DNA of 64,000 bases from Candidatus Woesebacteria bacterium RIFCSPHIGHO2_01_FULL_39_32 (lineage in GTDB: Bacteria; Patescibacteriota; Microgenomatia; UBA8517), in assembly GCA_001792345.1 (NCBI GenBank), contig MGGJ01000013.1:21371-85370 (forward strand), given 5' to 3'. The notes under the pieces are model-generated. The model did not search any database, had not been told where the DNA came from, and was given only the letters and a program-made list of their open reading frames with translations. Made by a program: the position numbers and the translations under genes. This document shows, piece after piece, positions 28-10,644 of the stretch; position 1 is the first letter of the stretch; every line of letters begins with the position of its first letter.

Positions 28-1557
28 TTGTCACAAACGGAAGCAATTAAGATTACTGAAGAAACTTTAGATCAAATAAAAACAAAGGATTCAATTGTTA
101 AGGTAGCTGGAGACATGAATGCGCTAATCCGATTCTTGAACTGGTTCCCCTTGATAAAAAGTGAGGAAAATTTTAGTTTAGGGACAGGATGGAGATATGC
201 AGCAGTTTGTGACACAACCAATGCACTACTCAATGAATTATCTGACGGAACATCATTTTTAGAAGGTTTTTCTGATATTTTTGTAGACTCTTTATTACCA
301 CAAATCAGACAGCTTGATGCAACATCTGCTAAGGGTAGATTTCAAATTCAACTTATTGAAGAAGGCAAATTGTCACCAGAAATATATGATTTAATCCAGA
401 AAAGAGGATCAGAAATAGTAGAAAGAACCTCTGTTGGACTTGTAAATCTGAAAGTAGAGGAAGCAGTAGTTGATCTAAATGAAACTAGACCCAGAGTATT
501 AGTTGGGGGTAAAGCTGCCGGTTTAAGTGAAGCAGTAAAAATATTCGGTAAAGAAAACACCCTCCCTGGATTAACTATTACAACTGAATGGATAAACGAG
601 GTGCTTTTCCAAGACGAAGAGATTAAAACCCTAATTAGTATCTTCGAAAATACAAGTAATATAGGCGAGAAATTTATCCTTGCAAGGGAAATCAGAGATA
701 GGATACATAATTTGAGATTTGTCGACCTGATATCTATACCAACTCATAATAGATATGCCATCAGATCTTCGTCTTATGATGAAGATACCACAAATAATGG
801 TACAGCAGCAGGAGTTTATGAAAGTGTGATTGACGTCGAGGCAACAGGAGTTGAAGCTGCAGTGAAAACTGTTGTCGCATCATTTTTTTCAGAAAAAGCA
901 ATTAGTTTTAGAACCTTACACGGTTTTAGCGACAAACCATCTATGGCAGTAGTAATTAGTCCACTTATCGAAGGAAAGGGCGGAGTTATTATTACCTCAG
1001 GAAACGTAAAAGATTGGGAGCTTTCAGTCGGAAAATCGGCTCAGCATGTTGTTAAAGACGGGGAAACAGGCTTCGACTCTTATAGAAGCATTGATGGAGC
1101 TTTAAAGTATAGATCCGATAATAAAATACTTAAACAAAATGAGGTGCTTATGATTGCTGAGGCGGCCCTTAAAGCAGAACGATTGCTAAAAACCCCCGTA
1201 GATATCGAGTTTGTATTCGATAAGGGGAAGCTGTTAATTCTACAATTAAGGTCTGCATCAAACCAAGGTGATACACAAGCTTATTCATCTGAAAGTACAA
1301 ATGAGATGGAAACAACTACGACTTTACAAGTAGACGATCTTGCAACTCTTTATTCGCTTGGCCAATCGCAGACTAATTTCAAGCTGAGGGTTGGAAAGGA
1401 TATCGACATAGGTCAATTCCAGGGTGAACTGTTAAGATTTCTGGTGGTAAATAGAAACCGTTTAAGGGGGTTAATACTAGAAAGAAGAATACCAAGAACT
1501 AGTCATTTAGCAAATATTTGTGCTAACTTAGGAATTAAAATCGAATTCACGGACTAA
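28..1557 (+). CDS. PEP-utilising enzyme-like protein with an N-terminal PEP/pyruvate-binding (PPDK_N-type) domain
   Basis: Motif VLVGGKAAGLSE resembles the GGKxxxL nucleotide-binding loop of PEP synthase/PPDK N-domains. ORF track 509 aa. Start at window edge is plausible. Confidence 0.5.
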   Translation: MSQTEAIKITEETLDQIKTKDSIVKVAGDMNALIRFLNWFPLIKSEENFSLGTGWRYAAVCDTTNALLNELSDGTSFLEGFSDIFVDSLLPQIRQLDATSAKGRFQIQLIEEGKLSPEIYDLIQKRGSEIVERTSVGLVNLKVEEAVVDLNETRPRVLVGGKAAGLSEAVKIFGKENTLPGLTITTEWINEVLFQDEEIKTLISIFENTSNIGEKFILAREIRDRIHNLRFVDLISIPTHNRYAIRSSSYDEDTTNNGTAAGVYESVIDVEATGVEAAVKTVVASFFSEKAISFRTLHGFSDKPSMAVVISPLIEGKGGVIITSGNVKDWELSVGKSAQHVVKDGETGFDSYRSIDGALKYRSDNKILKQNEVLMIAEAALKAERLLKTPVDIEFVFDKGKLLILQLRSASNQGDTQAYSSESTNEMETTTTLQVDDLATLYSLGQSQTNFKLRVGKDIDIGQFQGELLRFLVVNRNRLRGLILERRIPRTSHLANICANLGIKIEFTD

Positions 1558-2312
1558 TGAACAAAAGAGAATTAGTATTGCTTAAAAAAATTAGTAAAGA
1601 GGCTGTAAGACTAGACTGGGAAAAGGCTTTTAATGGAAAAGCAAAAGGGAACAAGCATCTTTTTAGAGTAAATAAAATTGCAAAGTTTCTTCAAAAAAGG
1701 GAGGGTGGAAACTTATTTTTAATTCTTACTTCAGCCTGGGTACACGACGTCTCTTTAGCGTATGATTGTAACGAATCAGAAAAAAATATAAACAAAAATA
1801 CAAGGCAATTTCTAAGTCAGTTTAACTTACTACCAAATGAAATTAATAAAATAGCCCAATATTCATCTTCACATGAGTCGGGGAGAAAAAATATTCCAAT
1901 AGAGGCCAAGATTGTTCATGATTCTGATGTAATAGATAAAGGTGGAATATTGGGAATCATAAGACATGTCTGGAAAATGACCAATTTACTGGAAAAAAGA
2001 ATATTATCTAATAAGGAAGACCTGGCACAAGTAAAGAAACATCTAAAGGAAAGGGAAAGGAAGGTTTTCACAAAGACATCTAAAAAAATAGTAAAACGAC
2101 TGAATAAAAAAAGAGACGAATTCTTTACTAATGAAGATCGTGCAATTGAGTTGATGAACCAAATATCAATTAAAGCAAATAAGGGTATAAATTCCGACAA
2201 GATTGCCCTCTTCTTGATTAAAACTGAAAAAATATATATTTCTGAAATACTAAGAAATCAACTCGACTGCTCTTATCTAAATCTAAGAATAAAGGAAAAT
2301 TATAAGGAGTAA
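1557..2312 (+). CDS. HD-domain phosphohydrolase
   Basis: H..HD...D motifs (AWVHDVS, HDSDVIDKGG). ATGA overlap with the upstream stop. Confidence 0.55.
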   Translation: MNKRELVLLKKISKEAVRLDWEKAFNGKAKGNKHLFRVNKIAKFLQKREGGNLFLILTSAWVHDVSLAYDCNESEKNINKNTRQFLSQFNLLPNEINKIAQYSSSHESGRKNIPIEAKIVHDSDVIDKGGILGIIRHVWKMTNLLEKRILSNKEDLAQVKKHLKERERKVFTKTSKKIVKRLNKKRDEFFTNEDRAIELMNQISIKANKGINSDKIALFLIKTEKIYISEILRNQLDCSYLNLRIKENYKE

Positions 2313-2401
2313 AAAGTATCAGAGATGAAAAAACTTGTTAAGCCAACTTTGTGTGAAAGATCCCGACGGAGAAATAAAAGAATTTTAAAACTTTTAGAAT
2401 A

Positions 2402-2974
2402 ATGGATAAAGACAGAAAAAATAAATACCAGATACTTATTGATGAACAACATACCAGATGGAAGACGGGTAAACAAGAAGATGGAGAAATAGAGCTTTGG
2501 AAACAATCTTTTGAAGAAAAACCAGCACTTCCGGACCCAAAGGATATGTTTGAAATAGAGATTTCAGACAAAGAAACTCTTCAAAAGATAGGAGTTCCTG
2601 AAGATAGAAAATCCTTATTTATCGAAAGAGAAATAATATTAGATAGCGACCTCGGTGATGAGGTGCTTATAGAAAGAATATATACCTCAAACGCACAAGA
2701 GGAAAAACAAGCAGCATCATATTTAATAATTACTCCGACTGGCGAGACTTTCGGTGACAAATCTATATATAGGTATAACTTATCTACACCCAATCCCAAG
2801 CAAGGATTATCTGGTTTGCTAATTATAAGTAATGTAAGAAGTTTACTCGAAACGCCAATCCCCATAACCCATTCAGAATGGAATCAAGGAAACAGTTTCG
2901 CCGGTCTTTCTAAAAGTGAAGTCAATAAAGCTTTGAGAAACGTAATTGAGTTTAGAGATCGAACAAAGAACTAA
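2402..2974 (+). CDS. hypothetical protein
   Basis: 190-aa ORF with no recognisable motif. Flanked by duplicated copies of the HD-gene 3' end. Confidence 0.35.
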   Translation: MDKDRKNKYQILIDEQHTRWKTGKQEDGEIELWKQSFEEKPALPDPKDMFEIEISDKETLQKIGVPEDRKSLFIEREIILDSDLGDEVLIERIYTSNAQEEKQAASYLIITPTGETFGDKSIYRYNLSTPNPKQGLSGLLIISNVRSLLETPIPITHSEWNQGNSFAGLSKSEVNKALRNVIEFRDRTKN

Positions 2975-2981
2975 TGAACCT

Positions 2982-3110
2982 GATTTCAATAAAAGCAAAT
3001 AAGGATATTAATTCCGACAAGATTGCTTTAATATTGGTTAAAAAAGATAAAACTCCTTTCCCAAAAGCTTTTCTTGAACAACTCCGGTGTAAATATTTAT
3101 AATAGAGTAT
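2982..3110 (+). repeat. degenerate duplicate of the 3' end of the HD-domain gene (partner copy at 2150-2290)
   Basis: About 55 nt at ~85% identity (atgaacc[a/t]gat[a/t]tcaat[t/a]aaagcaaataagg[g/a]tat[a/t]aattccgacaagattgc), then protein-level similarity (MNQISIKANKGINSDKIAL.. versus MNLISIKANKDINSDKIAL..). Confidence 0.6.
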
Positions 3111-3144
3111 TGAGTGAATCTTTAAGTATTGCTAATAAGAATAT

Positions 3145-3173
3145 TTGACAAATGATTAAACCTCCTATAATAT
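3145..3173 (+). promoter_or_regulatory. sigma70-like promoter (TTGACA ... TATAAT/TAATAT)
   Basis: ttgaca at 3145-3150 and tataat at 3166-3171 (15-nt spacer), or alternatively taatat at 3168-3173 (17-nt spacer). Confidence 0.45.
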
Positions 3174-3187
3174 TGCAAATTGCTGTT

Positions 3188-3229
3188 ATGACTACTGGCT
3201 ATTACTATTACTTTAGCCCAAGTTTTTAA
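3188..3229 (+). CDS. leader peptide MTTGYYYYFSPSF (4 tandem Tyr codons)
   Basis: atg act act ggc tat tac tat tac ttt agc cca agt ttt taa. The stop codon lies 5 nt before the terminator stem. It sits between the promoter and the decarboxylase-tyrS operon. Confidence 0.5.
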   Translation: MTTGYYYYFSPSF

Positions 3230-3233
3230 AAGC

Positions 3234-3258
3234 AACGCGCCTTTGAGCGCGTTTTTTT
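3234..3258 (+). terminator. intrinsic terminator / attenuator hairpin
   Basis: aacgcgc-ctttga-gcgcgtt followed by a T7 tract, 16 nt upstream of the decarboxylase ATG. Confidence 0.6.
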
Positions 3259-3274
3259 ATGCAAAAAAAATAAG

Positions 3275-4780
3275 ATGATTGAAGAAAGACAAATACTAAC
3301 AACAGATTTAGAACGAGTAAAAGACTTCTTTGTCGATCCAAGAAACCCACAATCAGCAGAAGATCTTGTTCAAATCGGGGGAGATGCAATACGTGTGATG
3401 GCCCAAATTTATTCCACGGCGGGACAGATTGAGTCAATGCCGCCAAAATTCAGGGATTGGTTGCAAGGCATAAAACCTGGAATGTCGGAACTTGAATCAG
3501 TAACAGGGGAAGTCCTAAGAATGGAAGCAAAAACCCGAAGGTTCGATGAAATGTTCATGGGTCAAATTCATCCACAAGGTAGCAAAATCGGAATAATTTC
3601 TAACTTAGTCGCTGCCTATATGAATAACAATCTAATAGTCGAAGATGTCTCTCAATCTGAAAGAGTAATGGAAAGAGAATCTATTAGATGGCTTGCAGAA
3701 ATTTTGGGATATGAGACCGATTTGGCAGGTGGAAATATCGTTACTGGAGGTACTGAAGCTAATGAAATTGCCCTTATGGTTGCTAGGGAAAAGCTATTGG
3801 ACTCAATGGGTTTGAAGAATCCCCTAAAGAGAGTTAAGAATCCTGTGCAGATGTATGTTTTGACTTCAAGGTGGAAACATTATTCGATAAGTAAAAAATG
3901 TGATGAATTAGGTATTGGTCTTCTGGAAATGCCATCTGATGACTTTAAGATTAATGTTCGCGCAACAGAAAAAGCGGTGAGGAAATTGAGAGAGAGAGGT
4001 AAGCATGTTGTTGCAATAGTCGGGTTAGCCGGCGAAACAGAGACTGGAGCCATTGAAGATCTTGAGGGACTTGCCGAAGTTGCGCATAATACTGATATTT
4101 ATTTCCATGTTGATGCAGCATATGGCGGACCTTTTGTGTTATCTAGAAGAAAAGATCTGTTCAAGGGAATTGAGTACGCAGACTCGGTCACAATAGATCC
4201 ACATAAAATGCTCTACACACCTTATCCTGCAGGAGCAATAGTGTTTAGAAACGCCAGCGATCAAGACTATCTCCACACAGATACTAGATATTTGGGGGCC
4301 GTGGCCTCAACATCCTCTGGATCTAGAAGTACTGCTGGCACAATATCCACTTACGCAACAATTAAACTTCTTGGAAATGATGGTATAGCAACCTTGTTAA
4401 ACCACACACTTGATTTAGTGGAAACAGCATATCATTACGTGGAAGATTCTAGAGTACTTAGAGCTCTACATGAACCGGAACTCAACACTATGTTAATAGG
4501 CCTAACTGATGATGTTAAAACAAGAGCGGCTCAAAGAGGAATTGACGGAAAAGCATACGATGACATGATTTGCGCAGTAATAAGACAAATTGACAATCAT
4601 CGATCTAGAAATCCTTACGTCTCAAACAATAGCGATGTAGATCCTGAAAAACGTTTTGGTAGGATCGGTAAACGAAGTGTTTTTAGATTTATAGCTGTTC
4701 ACCCTTATACAACTCATGAAGATGTCAGAACTACTCTTCAAAGAGTCGAAGAGACAGTTAGTGAAAAAATAGGGCTATAA
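3275..4780 (+). CDS. PLP-dependent group II amino-acid decarboxylase (tyrosine/aromatic decarboxylase-like)
   Basis: SVTIDPHKMLYTPYPAGAI contains the PLP-lysine motif of group II decarboxylases. Confidence 0.8.
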   Translation: MIEERQILTTDLERVKDFFVDPRNPQSAEDLVQIGGDAIRVMAQIYSTAGQIESMPPKFRDWLQGIKPGMSELESVTGEVLRMEAKTRRFDEMFMGQIHPQGSKIGIISNLVAAYMNNNLIVEDVSQSERVMERESIRWLAEILGYETDLAGGNIVTGGTEANEIALMVAREKLLDSMGLKNPLKRVKNPVQMYVLTSRWKHYSISKKCDELGIGLLEMPSDDFKINVRATEKAVRKLRERGKHVVAIVGLAGETETGAIEDLEGLAEVAHNTDIYFHVDAAYGGPFVLSRRKDLFKGIEYADSVTIDPHKMLYTPYPAGAIVFRNASDQDYLHTDTRYLGAVASTSSGSRSTAGTISTYATIKLLGNDGIATLLNHTLDLVETAYHYVEDSRVLRALHEPELNTMLIGLTDDVKTRAAQRGIDGKAYDDMICAVIRQIDNHRSRNPYVSNNSDVDPEKRFGRIGKRSVFRFIAVHPYTTHEDVRTTLQRVEETVSEKIGL

Positions 4781-4795
4781 TCTTTTAAATTAAAT

Positions 4796-5908
4796 ATGCC
4801 TGAGAAAGACATACAATTATTAACTTCCGAAATGATCGCTATTCCTTCTTTGACGACCGATCAAGAAGCTTGCCTTAAGGTACTCGATTATATTTCTTCG
4901 TACCTAGGAAAAGTACATGCAGAAACTTACTTGCATACCGGAGTGTATTCACGCATTTGGGGTGACAACAATACACTTATGAACCCAAGACTTCTTCTTT
5001 CTGGGCATATAGATGTTGTCGACGTAGAGGGTGATGACACTTTATTCCACTCCAAAGAGGAAGCTGGAAAATTGTATGGTAGGGGTGCGGGAGACATGAA
5101 GGGACATGTTGCCTCGATGCTTTACTCTTATAAAAAATGGCTAGAAGAAGGAGGGCCTAGAGGAGTAGGTTTGCTTTTAACTTCAGATGAAGAAATGGGC
5201 GGCTTTAACGGTACGCGGTATGTTGTGGAACAAGGTTTAAAACCCAAAGTTGTATTTATTCCTGATGGAACTCTTGATTTTTCTATTGTCAAATCGCAAA
5301 AAGCGCCCCATCACTTTGTAGTCGAAATTCAAGGACAAGGCGGACACGCTGCAGATTCGTATAAAATTAAGGATCCCATCGATAGCCTAATCGCTTTTTA
5401 TTTACGAGTTCAAGAAAAGTACGATATTGCAACTCCAGAAAACGGTTGGGCTTCAACTTTCAAAATGACCGTTGTAAACACTCCAAACCAATCAAAGAAT
5501 AAAATTCCAGATAGAGTAACGGCAGCTTTTAGTTGGAGGTGGCCACCGGAACAAATCCTTTTTGAGGAAGGTAGGGATGAAATTACCAACTTAGCTAAAC
5601 AATATGGGGTAAAAATCCTTGAAGAGGAAGGTGGAGGTGAAGGATGTATTCTTAACGAAAATGCGGAATTTGTAACTCAATGGAAAACAATTATTGAAGA
5701 AATTATAGGTCGTGGTGTAAAATTCGTCAACATGCATGGTACCACAGATGGCCGACACTTCTATAACAGCAAAGTCGCCGGGACTAAAAATGTACTTGTC
5801 ACCTCAGCAATCTCGGGAGATCACCACCAAAAAGGCGAGTGGGTAGACATTCAAAGTTTGAATCAGTTATCTGGAGCTATTAGTAGGTATATGCGCATTA
5901 GTGAATAA
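4796..5908 (+). CDS. M20 family metallopeptidase (ArgE/DapE/carboxypeptidase-like)
   Basis: Metal-binding motifs LSGHIDVVD and GRGAGDMKG. Confidence 0.75.
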   Translation: MPEKDIQLLTSEMIAIPSLTTDQEACLKVLDYISSYLGKVHAETYLHTGVYSRIWGDNNTLMNPRLLLSGHIDVVDVEGDDTLFHSKEEAGKLYGRGAGDMKGHVASMLYSYKKWLEEGGPRGVGLLLTSDEEMGGFNGTRYVVEQGLKPKVVFIPDGTLDFSIVKSQKAPHHFVVEIQGQGGHAADSYKIKDPIDSLIAFYLRVQEKYDIATPENGWASTFKMTVVNTPNQSKNKIPDRVTAAFSWRWPPEQILFEEGRDEITNLAKQYGVKILEEEGGGEGCILNENAEFVTQWKTIIEEIIGRGVKFVNMHGTTDGRHFYNSKVAGTKNVLVTSAISGDHHQKGEWVDIQSLNQLSGAISRYMRISE

Positions 5909-5910
5909 AT

Positions 5911-7179
5911 ATGTCTTTAGAGCACCATCTTGATCAATTAATAAGTCGAGAACAAGAGCCTGTAACTATTGATGAAACGTTGCGTCGAGGTGTCGAGATA
6001 ATTTTACCTGATCGAAGTAGTCTACAAAGCGAGATGGAACAAAGAAAGGTACGGTTGTATTTAGGAATTGATGCAACCAGCCCAAATCTTCATATAGGTC
6101 ATACAGTCCCACTTCGCAAATTAAGACAGTTTCAAGACTTAGGCCACGAGGTAATATTTCTTTTCGGGGGATTTACTTCCTTGATTGGAGATCCATCAGA
6201 TAAGTCGGCTACTAGGCAAAGATTAACTCCAGAACAGGTTGAATATAATATGGCGACCTATGTTGATCAGGCAGCGAGGATACTTGATTTTTCTCCCAAT
6301 TCACCAAATCCAATTAAAATTATGAATAATGCCGAATGGCTTTCGAAACTTACTCTTGCAGAAGTAATAGATATTCAAGCCAATTTTACAGTGCAGCAAA
6401 TGTTAGAACGAAATATGTTTCAAGAACGAGTGCAAGCAGGAAAACCAATCTGGCTTCAAGAGTTTTCTTATCCATGGATGCAAGGTTGGGATGCTGTTGC
6501 TATGAATGTTGATATAGAAGTTGGAGGTAAAGATCAGCTTTTCAATATGCTTGTTGGCCAAACACTTGTCAGAAGATATAAAGATCACGAAAAATGGGTA
6601 ATAGGCACAAAGCTAATAGAGGATCCAAGCGGCAAGAAAATGGGCAAGACTGAAGGAAATATTGTTAATATACTCGATTGGCCGGAGGTCAAATACGAAG
6701 GAGTCATGGCATGGCCGGATACTGCAATTGGCGTAGGTTTCGAATTAATCACTTCTGTACCAATGGAAGCAGTTTACCAAATACAAGAGGAGGTTTTACC
6801 TCAAACACTTGAGGGAACTAGTGGTATTCACCCCATGGAATTAAAGGAAGCATTAGCGTTTAGGATGGTATTAGAATTAGATGGCGAAGATGCTGCCGTT
6901 TATGCACGAGAAGAATTTGATAGAGTGAAAAGACAAAGACTACTTCCTAGACGAATCCAAGAAATCAACGTTCACGCTGATTCGAGCTTTTTACAAATAT
7001 TAGTTGATTCAAACTTAGCTCCAAACGAAACCGAAGCGCAAAGATTGATTGCATCTGGTGCTATTTATATTGACGGCAAGAAAGAGACAAAAAACAGAAA
7101 TTGGGGAAAAAGCGATGGAACTATTCAAATCGGTACTAAGACAATAAGAAATGTAAGGAGAATCGTTCTACAAGTCTAA
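5911..7179 (+). CDS. tyrS: tyrosyl-tRNA synthetase
   Basis: HIGH motif (NLHIGH), GDPSDK, KMGKTEGN (KMSKS) and a C-terminal S4 domain. Confidence 0.9.
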   Translation: MSLEHHLDQLISREQEPVTIDETLRRGVEIILPDRSSLQSEMEQRKVRLYLGIDATSPNLHIGHTVPLRKLRQFQDLGHEVIFLFGGFTSLIGDPSDKSATRQRLTPEQVEYNMATYVDQAARILDFSPNSPNPIKIMNNAEWLSKLTLAEVIDIQANFTVQQMLERNMFQERVQAGKPIWLQEFSYPWMQGWDAVAMNVDIEVGGKDQLFNMLVGQTLVRRYKDHEKWVIGTKLIEDPSGKKMGKTEGNIVNILDWPEVKYEGVMAWPDTAIGVGFELITSVPMEAVYQIQEEVLPQTLEGTSGIHPMELKEALAFRMVLELDGEDAAVYAREEFDRVKRQRLLPRRIQEINVHADSSFLQILVDSNLAPNETEAQRLIASGAIYIDGKKETKNRNWGKSDGTIQIGTKTIRNVRRIVLQV

Positions 7180-7265
7180 TAAACTACTTCAAAATTAATA
7201 GTAGAATAATTTTATGCTTTGACGCTACGACACTTCTAGACTAAAATATTGATTGAAAGGCTAAA

Positions 7266-8438
7266 ATGCGAAATTTATCCATTGAAGAGGTTCTCACGAG
7301 GGGAGTATCTGATATTTTACCAACTAAAGGGGGCCTCGAAAACTTAATGAAAAGAAGGAAAATAACCCTCTATCAGGGTTTTGACCCTTCTATGCCTAGT
7401 CTTCACTTGGGTAATTATGTTGGAGTACTTAAACTCAGTCAATTTCAGAGGTTGGGTCACAAAGTCATATTTCTTGTAGGGGACTTTACTGGAATGATCG
7501 GAGATCCCAGTGATAAACTGTCCAGTAGAAAACAGCTAACTCGCGAGCAAGTTCTAGATAATGCCAAAAGTTGGAAAAAGCAAATCGAAAACATTCTTGA
7601 CTTTGAAGGAGAAAACAAAACACAAATTCTCTACAATTCAGAATGGAGCGACAAAATTTCTTTTAAGGATTTATTAGAAATAACTTCAAATTTTACCGTT
7701 CAGCAAATGATTGAGCGCGATATGTTCCAAGAGCGCCTCAAATTACAAAAACCAATTCGCCTTCATGAATTTTTATATCCTGTTGCTCAAGGGTACGACT
7801 CTGTCGCTATGGATGTTGACTTGGAAATAGGCGGTAGTGACCAAATATTTAATATGCTTGCGGGAAGAACTTTAATGAAAGCGATAAAAGAAAAGGAAAA
7901 ATATGTCTTGGCTACTAAATTATTGGTCGACAAAGAAGGGAAAAAGGTGGGAAAGACTACGGGGAATGCTTTGTTCTTAGATTCATCACCTGAAAATTTT
8001 TTTGCAGGGATAATGTCTTTTCCAGACGACGTAATTGAACTTAGTTTCGAACTATTAACAGAAATTCTCCTTCGGGGATTGAGTATGAAAATTAAGAAAA
8101 ACCCCTTAGACCAAAAAAAGAGATTAGCATATGAAGTAGTTAAAATTATTTGGGGCGAAACGGAAGCCAAAAAATCACAAGAACATTTTGAAAAGACTTT
8201 TCAGAAAGGAGAAACACCAAGCGAGATAAAGCCTTTGGAAATTAGTGTCAGTGAAAACATTACTGTTACAGATGCCGTTGCCCTAGAAGTAGGGAGCAAA
8301 TCTGAGGCCAAACGACTTTTGGAGCAGAGGGCCATAGAAGTTGATGGAAAAGTAGTTGAAAATCCTAAGGCTGAACTAGTGGATGGAGAAGTTCTGAAAA
8401 TCGGAAAGAAAAAATTCGTAAAAGTTGTCATAAAATGA
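7266..8438 (+). CDS. tyrosyl-tRNA synthetase paralog (HIGH motif altered to HLGN)
   Basis: SLHLGNYVG, IGDPSDK, KVGKTTGN and a C-terminal S4 domain. Tandem to tyrS. A TTGACG-17-TAAAAT promoter-like element lies at 7222-7250. Confidence 0.8.
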   Translation: MRNLSIEEVLTRGVSDILPTKGGLENLMKRRKITLYQGFDPSMPSLHLGNYVGVLKLSQFQRLGHKVIFLVGDFTGMIGDPSDKLSSRKQLTREQVLDNAKSWKKQIENILDFEGENKTQILYNSEWSDKISFKDLLEITSNFTVQQMIERDMFQERLKLQKPIRLHEFLYPVAQGYDSVAMDVDLEIGGSDQIFNMLAGRTLMKAIKEKEKYVLATKLLVDKEGKKVGKTTGNALFLDSSPENFFAGIMSFPDDVIELSFELLTEILLRGLSMKIKKNPLDQKKRLAYEVVKIIWGETEAKKSQEHFEKTFQKGETPSEIKPLEISVSENITVTDAVALEVGSKSEAKRLLEQRAIEVDGKVVENPKAELVDGEVLKIGKKKFVKVVIK

Positions 8439-8607: not shown

Positions 8608-10644
8608 ATGAAGCTCAGTGCTCCGGTTAGTCGACTGCCAATGGTCGGGCATATTTATGTCAATCGTCTAGAAAAACTCGGTATCAGCACCATCGAAGAT
8701 CTTCTTTACCACGTACCTCACAGATATCAAGATTTCAGAATCGTCTCGGATATCTCTCGAGCTCAAATCGGAGAAGTAGTCACAATTCAAGGAATAGTAC
8801 TATCTATGAAAAATATTTATACGAAATACGGGAAAGTAATACAAAAAGCCGAAGTGCAGGATAAAACAGGACAGATTCAAGTGATATGGTTCAACCAACG
8901 CTATTTGGTTCGTTCGGTCAGAGAAGGGGAAAGGTATTCTTTCTCGGGGAAGGTAGATTGGTTTGATAGAAAAAAGTCTTTAATTTCGCCAGATTTTGAA
9001 AACATACAAAACTCCAACACGACAATTCACACCGGAAGGCTTGTACCAGTCTACCCCGAAACACGCGGAGTGTCTTCGAAGTGGATTCGAGGTAGGGTTT
9101 TCTTTGCGCTAACCGAAGTACAACCATATCTAGAAGAGTTTTTGCCGATCGAGATAATCAAAGAAAATTCATTTATCGATTTACCTAATGCCTTACATAT
9201 TGTCCATTTTCCCGACAATTCTGAAGACGCAGAAAAATCAAAAAAAAGACTGGCTTTTAATGAACTTCTTTTTTATCAGCTAAGAAGTCTTTACCGAAAA
9301 AGTGACTGGAAGAAAATTCCCGCGGTTTTTCAGTTAAATATTAACGAAAAAATAATTAATGAATTTATAAAAACCCTTCCTTTTACTCTAACAAAATCGC
9401 AGCTTCGTTCAATCAAAGAAATTTCCAATGACTTGGAAAAAGAGTATCCAATGAATCGTTTGCTGGAAGGAGATGTTGGTAGCGGAAAAACGGTTGTTGC
9501 AGCAGCAGGCGCTTTTGCTTCATTTGTAAATGGTTATCAGACAGTTGTGATGGCACCAACTCAAATACTTGCCCAGCAGCACTTTGATACATTAAATCAG
9601 ATTTTTGACAAATTTAAAGTACGTGTGAGCCTTATTACATCTGCGGGTGTAAAAGCGGACTTAGGAAAAACAGATATCTTTGTAGGAACCCACGCCTTAA
9701 TCCACAAAAAGGTACAATTCGATAAAGTGGCCTTGGTTGTAATCGACGAACAGCATAGGTTCGGAGTAGAACAGCGTGCACACCTGATACAAAAAACCGG
9801 CAAATCCGCAAGCCGGCGGAAAAAAGCTCCTCACGTTCTAACAATGACTGCAACGCCAATTCCAAGAACCGTTGCATTGACTGTTTATGGGGATCTCGAC
9901 CTATCAACCCTAAATGAACTTCCCAAAGGTAGAAAGCCAGTTACGACCTGGATTGTTCCTCCACATAAACGGGAAGGGGGTTATAACTGGATTCGAGAAC
10001 AAATTAAAAAAGAGGGGGTTCAGGTTTTTATTATCTGCCCCCTAATTGAAGAGTCGCAGGTAGAAACAATGAAACAAGTTAAATCAGCTACAACTGAATT
10101 TGAAAGACTGAAAGATATCTTTCCAGATTTAAAACTAGGGCTTCTCCATGGTAAACAATCGTTGAGCTTGAAAAACGAAGTTTTGGAATCATTTAGAAGC
10201 GGAAAAACACATATCTTAGTAGCTACGCCTGTTGTGGAAGTGGGAATAGACGTTCCTAATGCGACAATTATGATTATAGAAGCTGCTGAGAGGTTTGGAT
10301 TGGCACAGCTGCATCAACTTAGGGGTCGAATTGGTCGCGGAGAAAGAAAATCTTATTGTCTCTTATTCACAAATGTAAGATCAAATACTGTTTTAACAAG
10401 ACTTAATGCACTCACCAAATCAATGTCGGGATTTGAGTTGGCTGAGTTGGATTTACAAATGCGCGGGCCAGGTGAAATGTATGGCATAAAACAGCACGGG
10501 TTCCCAGAATTGAAGGTCGCTTCCTGGAGCGACACAGAGTTAATAAAATATGCACGAGAAGTAGCTCAAGAAGCTCTAGATAAGCCAGAAAAATTTCCTA
10601 AACTTATAAAAATAATCGAATCTAAATCCATCGTCCCGAATTAA
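8608..10644 (+). CDS. recG: ATP-dependent DNA helicase RecG
   Basis: Wedge domain, helicase motifs GDVGSGKT, DEQHRFGV and QLRGRIGRG. Confidence 0.9.
   Translation: MKLSAPVSRLPMVGHIYVNRLEKLGISTIEDLLYHVPHRYQDFRIVSDISRAQIGEVVTIQGIVLSMKNIYTKYGKVIQKAEVQDKTGQIQVIWFNQRYLVRSVREGERYSFSGKVDWFDRKKSLISPDFENIQNSNTTIHTGRLVPVYPETRGVSSKWIRGRVFFALTEVQPYLEEFLPIEIIKENSFIDLPNALHIVHFPDNSEDAEKSKKRLAFNELLFYQLRSLYRKSDWKKIPAVFQLNINEKIINEFIKTLPFTLTKSQLRSIKEISNDLEKEYPMNRLLEGDVGSGKTVVAAAGAFASFVNGYQTVVMAPTQILAQQHFDTLNQIFDKFKVRVSLITSAGVKADLGKTDIFVGTHALIHKKVQFDKVALVVIDEQHRFGVEQRAHLIQKTGKSASRRKKAPHVLTMTATPIPRTVALTVYGDLDLSTLNELPKGRKPVTTWIVPPHKREGGYNWIREQIKKEGVQVFIICPLIEESQVETMKQVKSATTEFERLKDIFPDLKLGLLHGKQSLSLKNEVLESFRSGKTHILVATPVVEVGIDVPNATIMIIEAAERFGLAQLHQLRGRIGRGERKSYCLLFTNVRSNTVLTRLNALTKSMSGFELAELDLQMRGPGEMYGIKQHGFPELKVASWSDTELIKYAREVAQEALDKPEKFPKLIKIIESKSIVPN

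Follow-up and report, generated by a model that had tools for sequence, protein, structure and literature searches.

A tyrosine-codon leader peptide abutting a terminator hairpin before a decarboxylase operon of Microgenomates: a probable attenuator without an antiterminator

Does a ribosome translating a short run of tyrosine codons decide whether RNA polymerase may enter an operon for a decarboxylase and tyrosyl-tRNA synthetase (TyrRS)? This question is raised by a small element in 64,000 nucleotides (nt) of DNA from Candidatus Woesebacteria bacterium RIFCSPHIGHO2_01_FULL_39_32 (contig MGGJ01000013.1), a stretch which we call the window and in whose full-length numbering positions are given. 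The element occupies 3145-3274, with all of its parts on the + strand, and comprises a promoter, a leader open reading frame (ORF) with four Tyr codons and a terminator hairpin. A first-pass annotation, made from the sequence alone, had proposed it as a candidate ribosome-mediated attenuator. Our results show that the leader and terminator form a real and conserved element, which is almost certainly regulatory. It is very likely that this element is an amino-acid-sensing leader-peptide attenuator. For the full model, in which a Tyr-specific attenuator lacks an antiterminator and switches the operon on when tyrosine is plentiful, we estimate a probability of about 0.62.

Re-reading and translation of the DNA recovered the -35 hexamer, the 13-codon ORF, the four Tyr codons, the hairpin with its seven T residues and the 16-nt gap before the first gene, all as first described. 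The -35 hexamer TTGACA of the leader promoter lies at 3145-3150 by sequence reading and by a scan for promoter consensus. A perfect TATAAT, with which it had been paired, is present at 3166-3171, but the spacer there is only 15 nt; overlapping this box, the consensus scan finds TAATAT at 3168-3173 behind a 17-nt spacer. The latter is probably the functional -10 hexamer, given its canonical spacing and the fact that relatives have the same kind of hexamer, TAnnAT, at 16 to 18 nt. From the end of this hexamer to the leader ATG is 14 nt, and the predicted 5' untranslated region is ~6-8 nt. The leader ORF, MTTGYYYYFSPSF (3188-3229), starts with the ATG at 3188 and, after 13 codons, ends with the TAA at 3227-3229; the four Tyr codons in a row, TAT TAC TAT TAC at 3200-3211, are those proposed to sense the amino acid. 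Such a (TAY)4 run is found twice on the two strands of the 64 kb, where 0.18 occurrences are expected. The stop codon does lie close before the hairpin, as had been noted, although the gap between the two is 4 nt and not 5. The hairpin, AACGCGC-CTTTGA-GCGCGTT at 3234-3253, has a folding energy of -10.4 kcal/mol (z = -2.6), and the T7 tract of the predicted intrinsic terminator follows at 3252-3258. Strong hairpins with a T run are rare, there being 6 such sites on both strands of the window; one of them, at 48748-48731 on the - strand, was rejected as an attenuator and is an ordinary terminator behind a DksA-like gene.

The T tract ends 16 nt before the decarboxylase ATG at 3275, and a second promoter between terminator and decarboxylase was rejected for want of space. 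As the N-terminus of the decarboxylase aligns with those of 35 homologues from the first methionine, the start at 3275 is sound and no room is left for a promoter behind the terminator. A tiny second ORF encoding MQKK (ATG CAA AAA AAA TAA; 3259-3273) starts directly behind the T tract and ends 1 nt short of this ATG. Of 32 relatives, 17 have an ATG or GTG directly behind the T run, and in L062, L068 and L111 this codon starts the decarboxylase; the MQKK ORF might be a relic of evolution or a relay for reinitiation. Rfam searches of the whole window at gathering score found no T-box and no leader family. With E values up to 10 allowed, the interval 3100-3300 gave only weak, terminator-driven matches and no T-box, the best leader-family scores being 17.5 bits for Trp_leader (threshold 41) and 14 bits for Leu_leader (threshold 50). 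The same method does find a T-box in a related locus, L018.

Conservation of the mini-ORF, the Tyr run and the hairpin in relatives had been named as the check on the proposed attenuator; this comparison is also the decisive guard against a chance arrangement, and the element clearly passes it. We collected relatives by scanning species-representative genomes and metagenome contigs with a decarboxylase alignment and by looking up contigs; a scan with the single decarboxylase sequence had returned nothing, and its repeat with the alignment worked. Approximately 45 distinct loci with a decarboxylase N-terminus were obtained, not counting as informative the contig L033, which is 99% identical and has an identical leader. 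A promoter, a mini-ORF and a terminator directly precede the decarboxylase in 33 distinct loci of Patescibacteria (Microgenomates), whose decarboxylases are 40-57% identical in protein sequence to that of the window, and the leader ORF has 2-5 consecutive Tyr codons in 27 of these 33. The family shares a TTGACA, a spacer of 16-18 nt, a TAnnAT, a start codon 7-19 nt further on, an ORF that is 8-18 codons long and, with a run of T6-9 behind it, a perfect GC hairpin. Of the 30 members that could be scored, 29 have TTGACA or TTGACT 30-38 nt ahead of the start codon of the leader. Examples of the leader ORFs are MLNSEYYYLSKDNA (L001, accession CP066686.1), MKIQYYYYYLSKVNA (L043), MEYSYYYYYICKNV (L053), MESMDNYCYYYCYYTNS (L067), MINSYYYFIGSI (L008), MIYYSLGF (L005), MKEYYYYTNLILE (L111) and MYQITYKYYYIVGF (L112, with a TTG start). 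The gene upstream of the leader varies (HD phosphohydrolase, TyrRS, M20 or hypothetical protein) and the decarboxylase is always directly downstream, with 0-54 nt between the T tract and its ATG.

The distant decarboxylase loci L071, L072 and L097 were excluded from the family, as the ATG of a frame ending in HKYYE and a stop codon falls inside the predicted promoter. These three loci share a CATAAATATTATGAGTAA segment ~60 nt before the decarboxylase ATG, without a terminator. Several of the contigs with a leader and typical Patescibacteria genes (among L008, L009, L011-L013, L016 and L019) are labelled 'uncultured Pseudomonadales' or 'Gammaproteobacteria'; these labels are probably mis-assigned taxonomy of metagenome-assembled genomes.

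The Tyr runs have the signature of a translated frame. In 27 leaders, TAY makes up 92 of 431 codons in frame compared with 5 and 22 of 404 in the other two frames, and none of 2000 shufflings reached 92 (mean 25.5 +/- 4.7). Tyrosine accounts for 24% of the leader residues, as against 3.1% in the proteins of the window, and the leader frame is free of stops in 29 of 29 cases where the other frames of the same spans contain 40 and 31 stops. ORFs were partly picked by eye where there were several candidates, which introduces some selection bias into these numbers, although the effect is far larger than the bias. The synonymous variation that had been looked for is found across the family. Both Tyr codons are in use (66 TAT and 26 TAC), and in the tails of the L001 clade Ser is encoded by TCA, TCT, TCG or TCC and Ala by GCA, GCT or GCG. 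The same holds for the terminators, whose stems differ by compensatory changes: among the 31 members with a perfect hairpin, 22 different stems occur, and CG, GC and AT pairs replace one another at every position of the stem, and all family members have T runs of 6-9. The combination is also confined to this site. A mini-ORF with a YY ends at one of the 65 distinct strong terminators on both strands of all fetched loci in 22 cases, and each time it sits 6-41 nt before the decarboxylase; no such mini-ORF was found elsewhere among these terminators.

Some further features of the leaders may be recorded here. Cys (UGY) makes up 4.8% of leader residues against a background of 0.6% and is always beside or within the Tyr runs (e.g., L067, L059, L068 and L034); a comparison of NYYY in L046 with EYC in L003 suggests A-to-G decay of Tyr codons, although the Cys codons may have a function. 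Asn is found at 8.2% against a background of 4.2%. A tail of CTG TCN nnn nnn AAC GCN TAA is kept, with free wobble positions, in L001, L009, L034, L035, L036, L037, L043 and L058, and its CTG and AAC are invariant although the genome is AT-rich.

A further indication of what the leaders sense comes from a paralogous enzyme. The L018 locus encodes, at 5959-7476, a decarboxylase 26% identical to that of the window, and this gene and its relatives in L113-L116 and L118 (down to 48% identity to the L018 protein) are preceded by the same minimal layout with runs of Phe codons instead. These Phe-type leaders, of which there are at least 6, read MNPKDFAFKFFFIEKELK, MNTFFTFFFFVKDI, MFQKYFEFTFFFFRKEFK, MFTKFFGFTFFFRKELQ, MFKKVFEFGFFFFRKELK and MNLINFEFGFFFFKKELK, each followed by a stop codon; they lie at 5840-5958 in L018, at about 2900-3000 in L113-L116 and at 2408-2500 in L118. 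The gene order is enolase-superfamily protein (MR_MLE), aminotransferase, M20, leader, decarboxylase. The repeated codon thus switches from Tyr to Phe together with the enzyme, a natural control that is hard to explain except by amino-acid-specific sensing. From their leaders, the two paralogous decarboxylase families appear to be Tyr- and Phe-specific, respectively.

Leaders of a classical design are also present in related loci. A second Phe leader (e.g., MTSKKLFTFFFFTFHNLGEVSA, ending at a stop codon) is found directly downstream of the Phe-type decarboxylases in L113, L114, L115, L116, L118, L120 and L018, and similar classical Phe leaders are found in L016, L020, L075, L082 and L096. The one in L115 (4560-4678) matches the Rfam family Phe_leader (RF01859) with 58 bits against a threshold of 55, the others being similar leaders. 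They have a large alternative helix (antiterminator) and 25-36 nt between stop codon and stem, and they precede a conserved ORF of 58-69 amino acids (aa) with the C-terminus RGxxYxLxGGDPDxRNxI and a strong GGAGG Shine-Dalgarno (SD) sequence. In a single case, L013 (10898-11030), a classical-looking Tyr leader, MKTISKNYYYFLVKAL and a stop codon, stands before an unrelated 78-aa ORF with 29 nt from stop to stem. The presence of classical and minimal designs with the same codons side by side in one locus fits an opposite logic for the two.

How, then, might the minimal design work? The features expected of an attenuator are a short ORF, a codon run and a terminator that is not followed by a later promoter, all of which are present, and antiterminator and anti-antiterminator structures, which are absent. 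In agreement with the first-pass annotation, which had seen no obvious antiterminator in the window, minimum-free-energy folding of 27 leaders revealed no conserved antiterminator or pause hairpin; the terminator is the only common structure, and a 5' hairpin predicted in the window leader is not common to the relatives. What is conserved in the leaders, in a variable form, is the codon run and not a U-rich pause region. Where the stop codon lies is also characteristic. Its first base is 7 nt before the stem in the window and 1-11 nt before it in most members; the stop codon lies inside the hairpin in L002 and L061, and the ORFs of L006, L007, L044 and L051 continue through the hairpin. From the last Tyr codon to the stem it is 25 nt in the window and 14-28 nt, typically 22-25 nt, in the family.

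Work in Escherichia coli indicates what such positions could mean. The ribosome protects ~10 nt past the A site, and folding of a hairpin needs 10-15 nt of free RNA (PMC4824070). When the stop codon before the terminator tR2 was moved from 28 to 5 bp upstream, termination fell from ~90% to <10%, and only if the ORF was translated (PMC4824070). Conversely, a stall motif before the pyrL terminator increased a hairpin-dependent loss of reporter expression from <2-fold to 26-fold upon induced stalling (PMC5021804). The polarity outlined at the outset, readthrough when tyrosine is plentiful, agrees with the geometry across the family; we infer it because the stop codon abuts the stem, because there is no competing pairing and because of these position-function results.

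According to this model, transcription would start ~7 nt past the -10 hexamer, and the leader ORF, being near the 5' end of the RNA, would be open to translation immediately on emerging; the near-leaderless start may be a means to the earliest possible loading of the lead ribosome. The only route of the polymerase to the decarboxylase-M20-TyrRS operon would be through the terminator just behind the leader stop. If Tyr-tRNA(Tyr) is plentiful, the lead ribosome would keep pace with the polymerase and reach the stop codon (A site at 3227), where it would cover the 5' arm of the stem (3234-3240) while the T tract is transcribed, such that no hairpin would form and the polymerase would read through. 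If charged tRNA(Tyr) is scarce, the ribosome would stall at 3200-3211, 25-34 nt before the stem, the hairpin would fold and transcription would terminate. The operon would be on only when the supply of tyrosine exceeds the needs of translation, which would suit a probable tyrosine-consuming decarboxylase, and consumption would be throttled once tRNA charging is endangered. The first TyrRS gene, tyrS1, would ride along and protect charging while the decarboxylase is active, and the second, tyrS2, with its own promoter, would be the housekeeping gene.

A short 5' untranslated region without an SD sequence had been pointed out as a feature of the leader, and it recurs across the family. The genes of the window are almost devoid of SD sequences, and several have -10-like boxes less than ~10 nt from their starts (e.g., 8608, 35779, 44493 on the - strand, 51994 on the - strand and 54737 on the - strand), a pattern which points to leaderless translation, or translation with short leaders, as a common mode in this genome. 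As such starts are the norm here, the near-leaderless start of the mini-ORF is no objection to its translation.

The opposite polarity, in which stalling at the Tyr codons during starvation would cause readthrough and induce TyrRS and the rest of the operon as for pheST or trp, has the precedents on its side. There is a TyrRS gene in the operon, genes for aminoacyl-tRNA synthetases are usually induced by low charging (the T-box of tyrS [PMC3315439] and attenuators of the pheST type [PMC1262725]), and classical Phe leaders do exist in related genomes. However, such a response would need an antiterminator or another conserved structure that competes with the terminator, and the 27 folded leaders have none. 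The 14-28 nt between the last Tyr codon and the stem are so few that about half would be covered by a stalled ribosome, and a stop codon that abuts or lies inside the hairpin, let alone the four ORFs that run through it, would have the opposite of the required effect, since unimpeded translation would break the terminator (PMC4824070). Moreover, the first and always-present regulated gene encodes a decarboxylase and not a biosynthetic enzyme. We therefore regard classical polarity as unlikely. An arrest peptide resembling TnaC would place the ribosome where the preferred model also wants it: free tyrosine, or a metabolite related to it, would make a Tyr-rich nascent chain hold it at the stop codon, and the held ribosome would mask the terminator. 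The stop codon has just the position at which a ribosome so halted would lie over the 5' arm. An SD-like AAGG(A/T) is seen 8-12 nt before the leader stop codon, as AAAGGAG in the Phe-type leaders, and might hold the ribosome there. Within clades, tails are kept with synonymous changes (LSK/RxNA before the stop in eight Tyr-type leaders and RKELK in Phe-type leaders). Between clades, though, the tails are wholly different (FSPSF, FIGSI, SLGF and TNLILE, each before the stop), peptides of 8-18 residues are too short to fill the exit tunnel, and the only universal feature is a codon run of 2-5, as for a codon sensor, with no link to known arrest motifs. A TnaC-like arrest peptide is hence quite improbable. 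The related proposal of a new class of amino-acid-sensing arrest peptides that act on an intrinsic terminator, with a hold at the stop codon tuned by free Tyr or Phe and paired versions before the paralogous decarboxylases, has perhaps a slightly better chance, but it too is doubtful.

The remaining alternatives dispense with sensing by a ribosome altogether. A constitutive partial terminator behind an incidental ORF might simply set a fixed low level of the operon or end transcripts from upstream; there are upstream genes on the same strand whose transcripts the hairpin could stop, and short ORFs are frequent in AT-rich DNA. This is very unlikely, as every member, regardless of which gene lies upstream, has a promoter between that gene and the mini-ORF, as the enrichment in Tyr is frame-specific and confined to this position, and as the switch to Phe before the paralogous decarboxylase is not explicable without amino-acid sensing. 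Alternatively, the mini-ORF could be a gene for a Tyr-rich micropeptide, or for a precursor processed by the neighbouring enzymes. Promoter, ORF and terminator do amount to a complete transcription unit, and precursor-peptide genes often have a leaky terminator behind them. Yet nothing is conserved in these 8-18 residues except for a Tyr run of variable length and position, PLP (pyridoxal phosphate)-dependent decarboxylases, M20 deacylases and TyrRS are not known as peptide-maturation enzymes, and both the coupling of stop and stem and the ORFs that pass through the hairpin fit regulation better, so we give this idea very little credence. Equally remote is an untranslated RNA or DNA motif, with a protein or tRNA(Tyr) binding the UAUUAC repeats in the manner of an operator or a T-box. 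TATTAC TATTAC is indeed directly repeated, T-boxes use UAC as the specifier codon for Tyr, and the L018 genome, a related one, has a T-box; but the element itself has no T-box or other Rfam match, its leader RNA of ~75 nt conserves only the terminator structure, and the three-base periodicity, the conserved start codon and the open frame that ends at the stem argue for translation.

Several points weigh against the preferred model of a Tyr-specific attenuator that is on when tyrosine is plentiful. The model deduces termination, ORF translation and a tyrosine response from sequence and from E. coli data, and the rules for ribosome and terminator positions likewise come from E. coli and not from Patescibacteria. 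The ribosome would have to initiate and still catch up with the polymerase within ~75 nt, and no conserved pause hairpin was found. Shutting off tyrS1 when charging of tRNA(Tyr) is low is counter-intuitive. That the decarboxylase acts on tyrosine is a tentative assignment, the best match, MfnA, being under the family cutoff. Finally, the leaders of L003 and L004 have only one Tyr codon, and sensing there may be weak or lost.

To our knowledge, leader-peptide attenuation has been found almost only in Proteobacteria, Actinobacteria and a few Firmicutes, on biosynthetic and aminoacyl-tRNA synthetase operons, and in every case it involves alternative RNA structures and induction on starvation. The present element resembles the classical leaders (E. 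coli trpL, pheL/pheA, pheM-pheST and hisL; the Trp, His, Leu, Thr and Phe leaders of Rfam) in having a promoter-proximal ORF rich in one amino acid and a terminator before the first gene and, according to the model, in having the position of the ribosome as the deciding factor. It differs in lacking both an antiterminator and a pause hairpin, in a stop codon right at the terminator and in a predicted polarity that is inverted, and also in its predicted sensing of Tyr, in a near-leaderless mRNA without an SD sequence, in preceding a decarboxylase rather than a biosynthetic gene and in belonging to Patescibacteria. In pyrBI and pyrE (rph-pyrE), a ribosome that closely follows the polymerase and translates up to or into the hairpin also suppresses termination without any antiterminator, and uncoupling restores it. 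The signal there is UTP-dependent pausing of the polymerase, whereas here it would be the speed of the ribosome at Tyr (or Phe) codons. The present element is hence like a hybrid, which joins the codon-run sensing of the trp, phe and his leaders to the effector principle of pyrBI and pyrE. Under the model it would share with tnaC-tnaAB a catabolic, amino-acid-consuming operon that is on when the amino acid is abundant, with a ribosome at the end of the leader ORF that blocks termination. In contrast, tnaC responds to free Trp by way of its nascent peptide and blocks Rho-dependent termination, where the present element has an intrinsic terminator and a conserved codon run.

Two further systems are close in other respects. 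In the tyramine (tdc) cluster tyrS-tdcA-tyrP of Enterococcus and Lactobacillus, a 322-nt T-box on tyrS is induced by starvation and the decarboxylase has its own promoter (PMC3315439). The likeness lies in an extra TyrRS linked to a tyrosine-type PLP-dependent decarboxylase and in control by tyrosine, predicted in our case, at the level of termination; in our locus, however, a leader of ~75 nt precedes decarboxylase and TyrRS together, and the decarboxylases belong to different subfamilies. In actinobacterial ilvB and leuA, short ORFs with regulatory codon runs overlap terminator hairpins and there is no clear classical antiterminator (PMC1262725). Those leaders concern other amino acids and biosynthetic operons, have no sequence relationship to ours and have a mode of action that is unresolved. 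Published accounts of tyrosine genes describe T-boxes as the means of control at the RNA level (PMC1262725; PMC3315439). A paper of 2010 states that known leader peptides were limited to Proteobacteria, Actinobacteria and the Firmicutes examples that it newly presented (PMC2965389). A search of the literature, in which not all journals were covered, found nothing relevant on Tyr leader peptides or on attenuation or leaderless translation in Patescibacteria, also called the candidate phyla radiation (CPR), and a Tyr leader peptide is found neither in Rfam nor in the literature searched. The novel aspects of the attenuator are the amino acid (Tyr), the lineage and the minimal, inverted design. 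In uncultivated, small-genome Microgenomates, the family numbers 33 members of the Tyr type and at least 6 of the Phe type. By its geometry it would follow an opposite logic, in which good charging of the cognate tRNA is the condition for making a decarboxylase that consumes the amino acid. The family provides a sequence-based functional label, Tyr- or Phe-related, for two uncharacterised decarboxylase families, a regulatory handle of a kind that is rare in the CPR and a compact natural test case, ~75 nt in length, for coupling of ribosome and RNA polymerase in Microgenomates.

The operon itself, described earlier as a decarboxylase, an M20 peptidase and two TyrRS genes, has all four genes by family matches, although the last of them probably has its own promoter. 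Its first gene (3275-4780, + strand) encodes a group II PLP-dependent decarboxylase of 501 aa (Pfam PF00282 at 2e-37). The best NCBIfam match of this protein is the MfnA tyrosine decarboxylase, under the curated cutoff (175 versus 299 bits), its relatives in the PDB are MfnA and diaminobutyrate decarboxylase, and its score against TIGR03811, the Enterococcus/Lactobacillus-type subfamily, is only 77 bits. An attempt to assign the substrate from family models gave no assignment, the matches to MfnA and PanP both being under cutoff. Homologues come from Woesebacteria, Collierbacteria and other Patescibacteria. An M20 (ArgE/DapE-type) deacylase/peptidase gene (4796-5908, +) follows 15 nt behind, and tyrS1 (5911-7179, +) follows 2 nt behind that (TIGR00234 at 288 bits, cutoff 114; HIGH and KMGKT intact). 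After a gap of 86 nt comes tyrS2 (7266-8438, +; TIGR00234 at 332 bits). Both TyrRS exceed the tyrS equivalog cutoff and keep HIGH and KMSKS-type motifs in alignments. A promoter-like TTGACG-17-TAAAAT was found by consensus scan in the gap, at 7219-7247, and the identity to the L001 orthologue is 68% for TyrS2 and 57% for TyrS1; TyrS2 is probably the housekeeping enzyme with its own promoter. A TyrRS gene also lies behind the decarboxylase in L001, L008, L009, L111 and L112.

The wider neighbourhood is kept across Microgenomates (window 28-8438; L001, L005, L007, L008 and L010) and consists of a PEP-synthase/PPDK N-terminal ATP-binding protein, an HD phosphohydrolase, in some cases a TyrRS, the decarboxylase, an M20 protein and a TyrRS; this suggests a tyrosine-related functional module. 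Upstream genes on the same strand in the window are at 2402-2974 and earlier. Positions 2972-3060 are ~80% identical to 2152-2240, the 3' end of the HD-domain gene (1557-2312), and in L001 and L008 the HD gene directly precedes the leader. Given this copy of the HD 3' end and the gene order in L001 and L008, the 190-aa ORF at 2402-2974, which has no family match, looks like a duplication-flanked insertion.

The T-box of L018, a Woesebacteria genome, lies at 8816-9100 (RF00230; 94.4 bits, threshold 93) before a 366-aa ORF without a Pfam match. The T-box and both leader-peptide designs thus coexist in the lineage.

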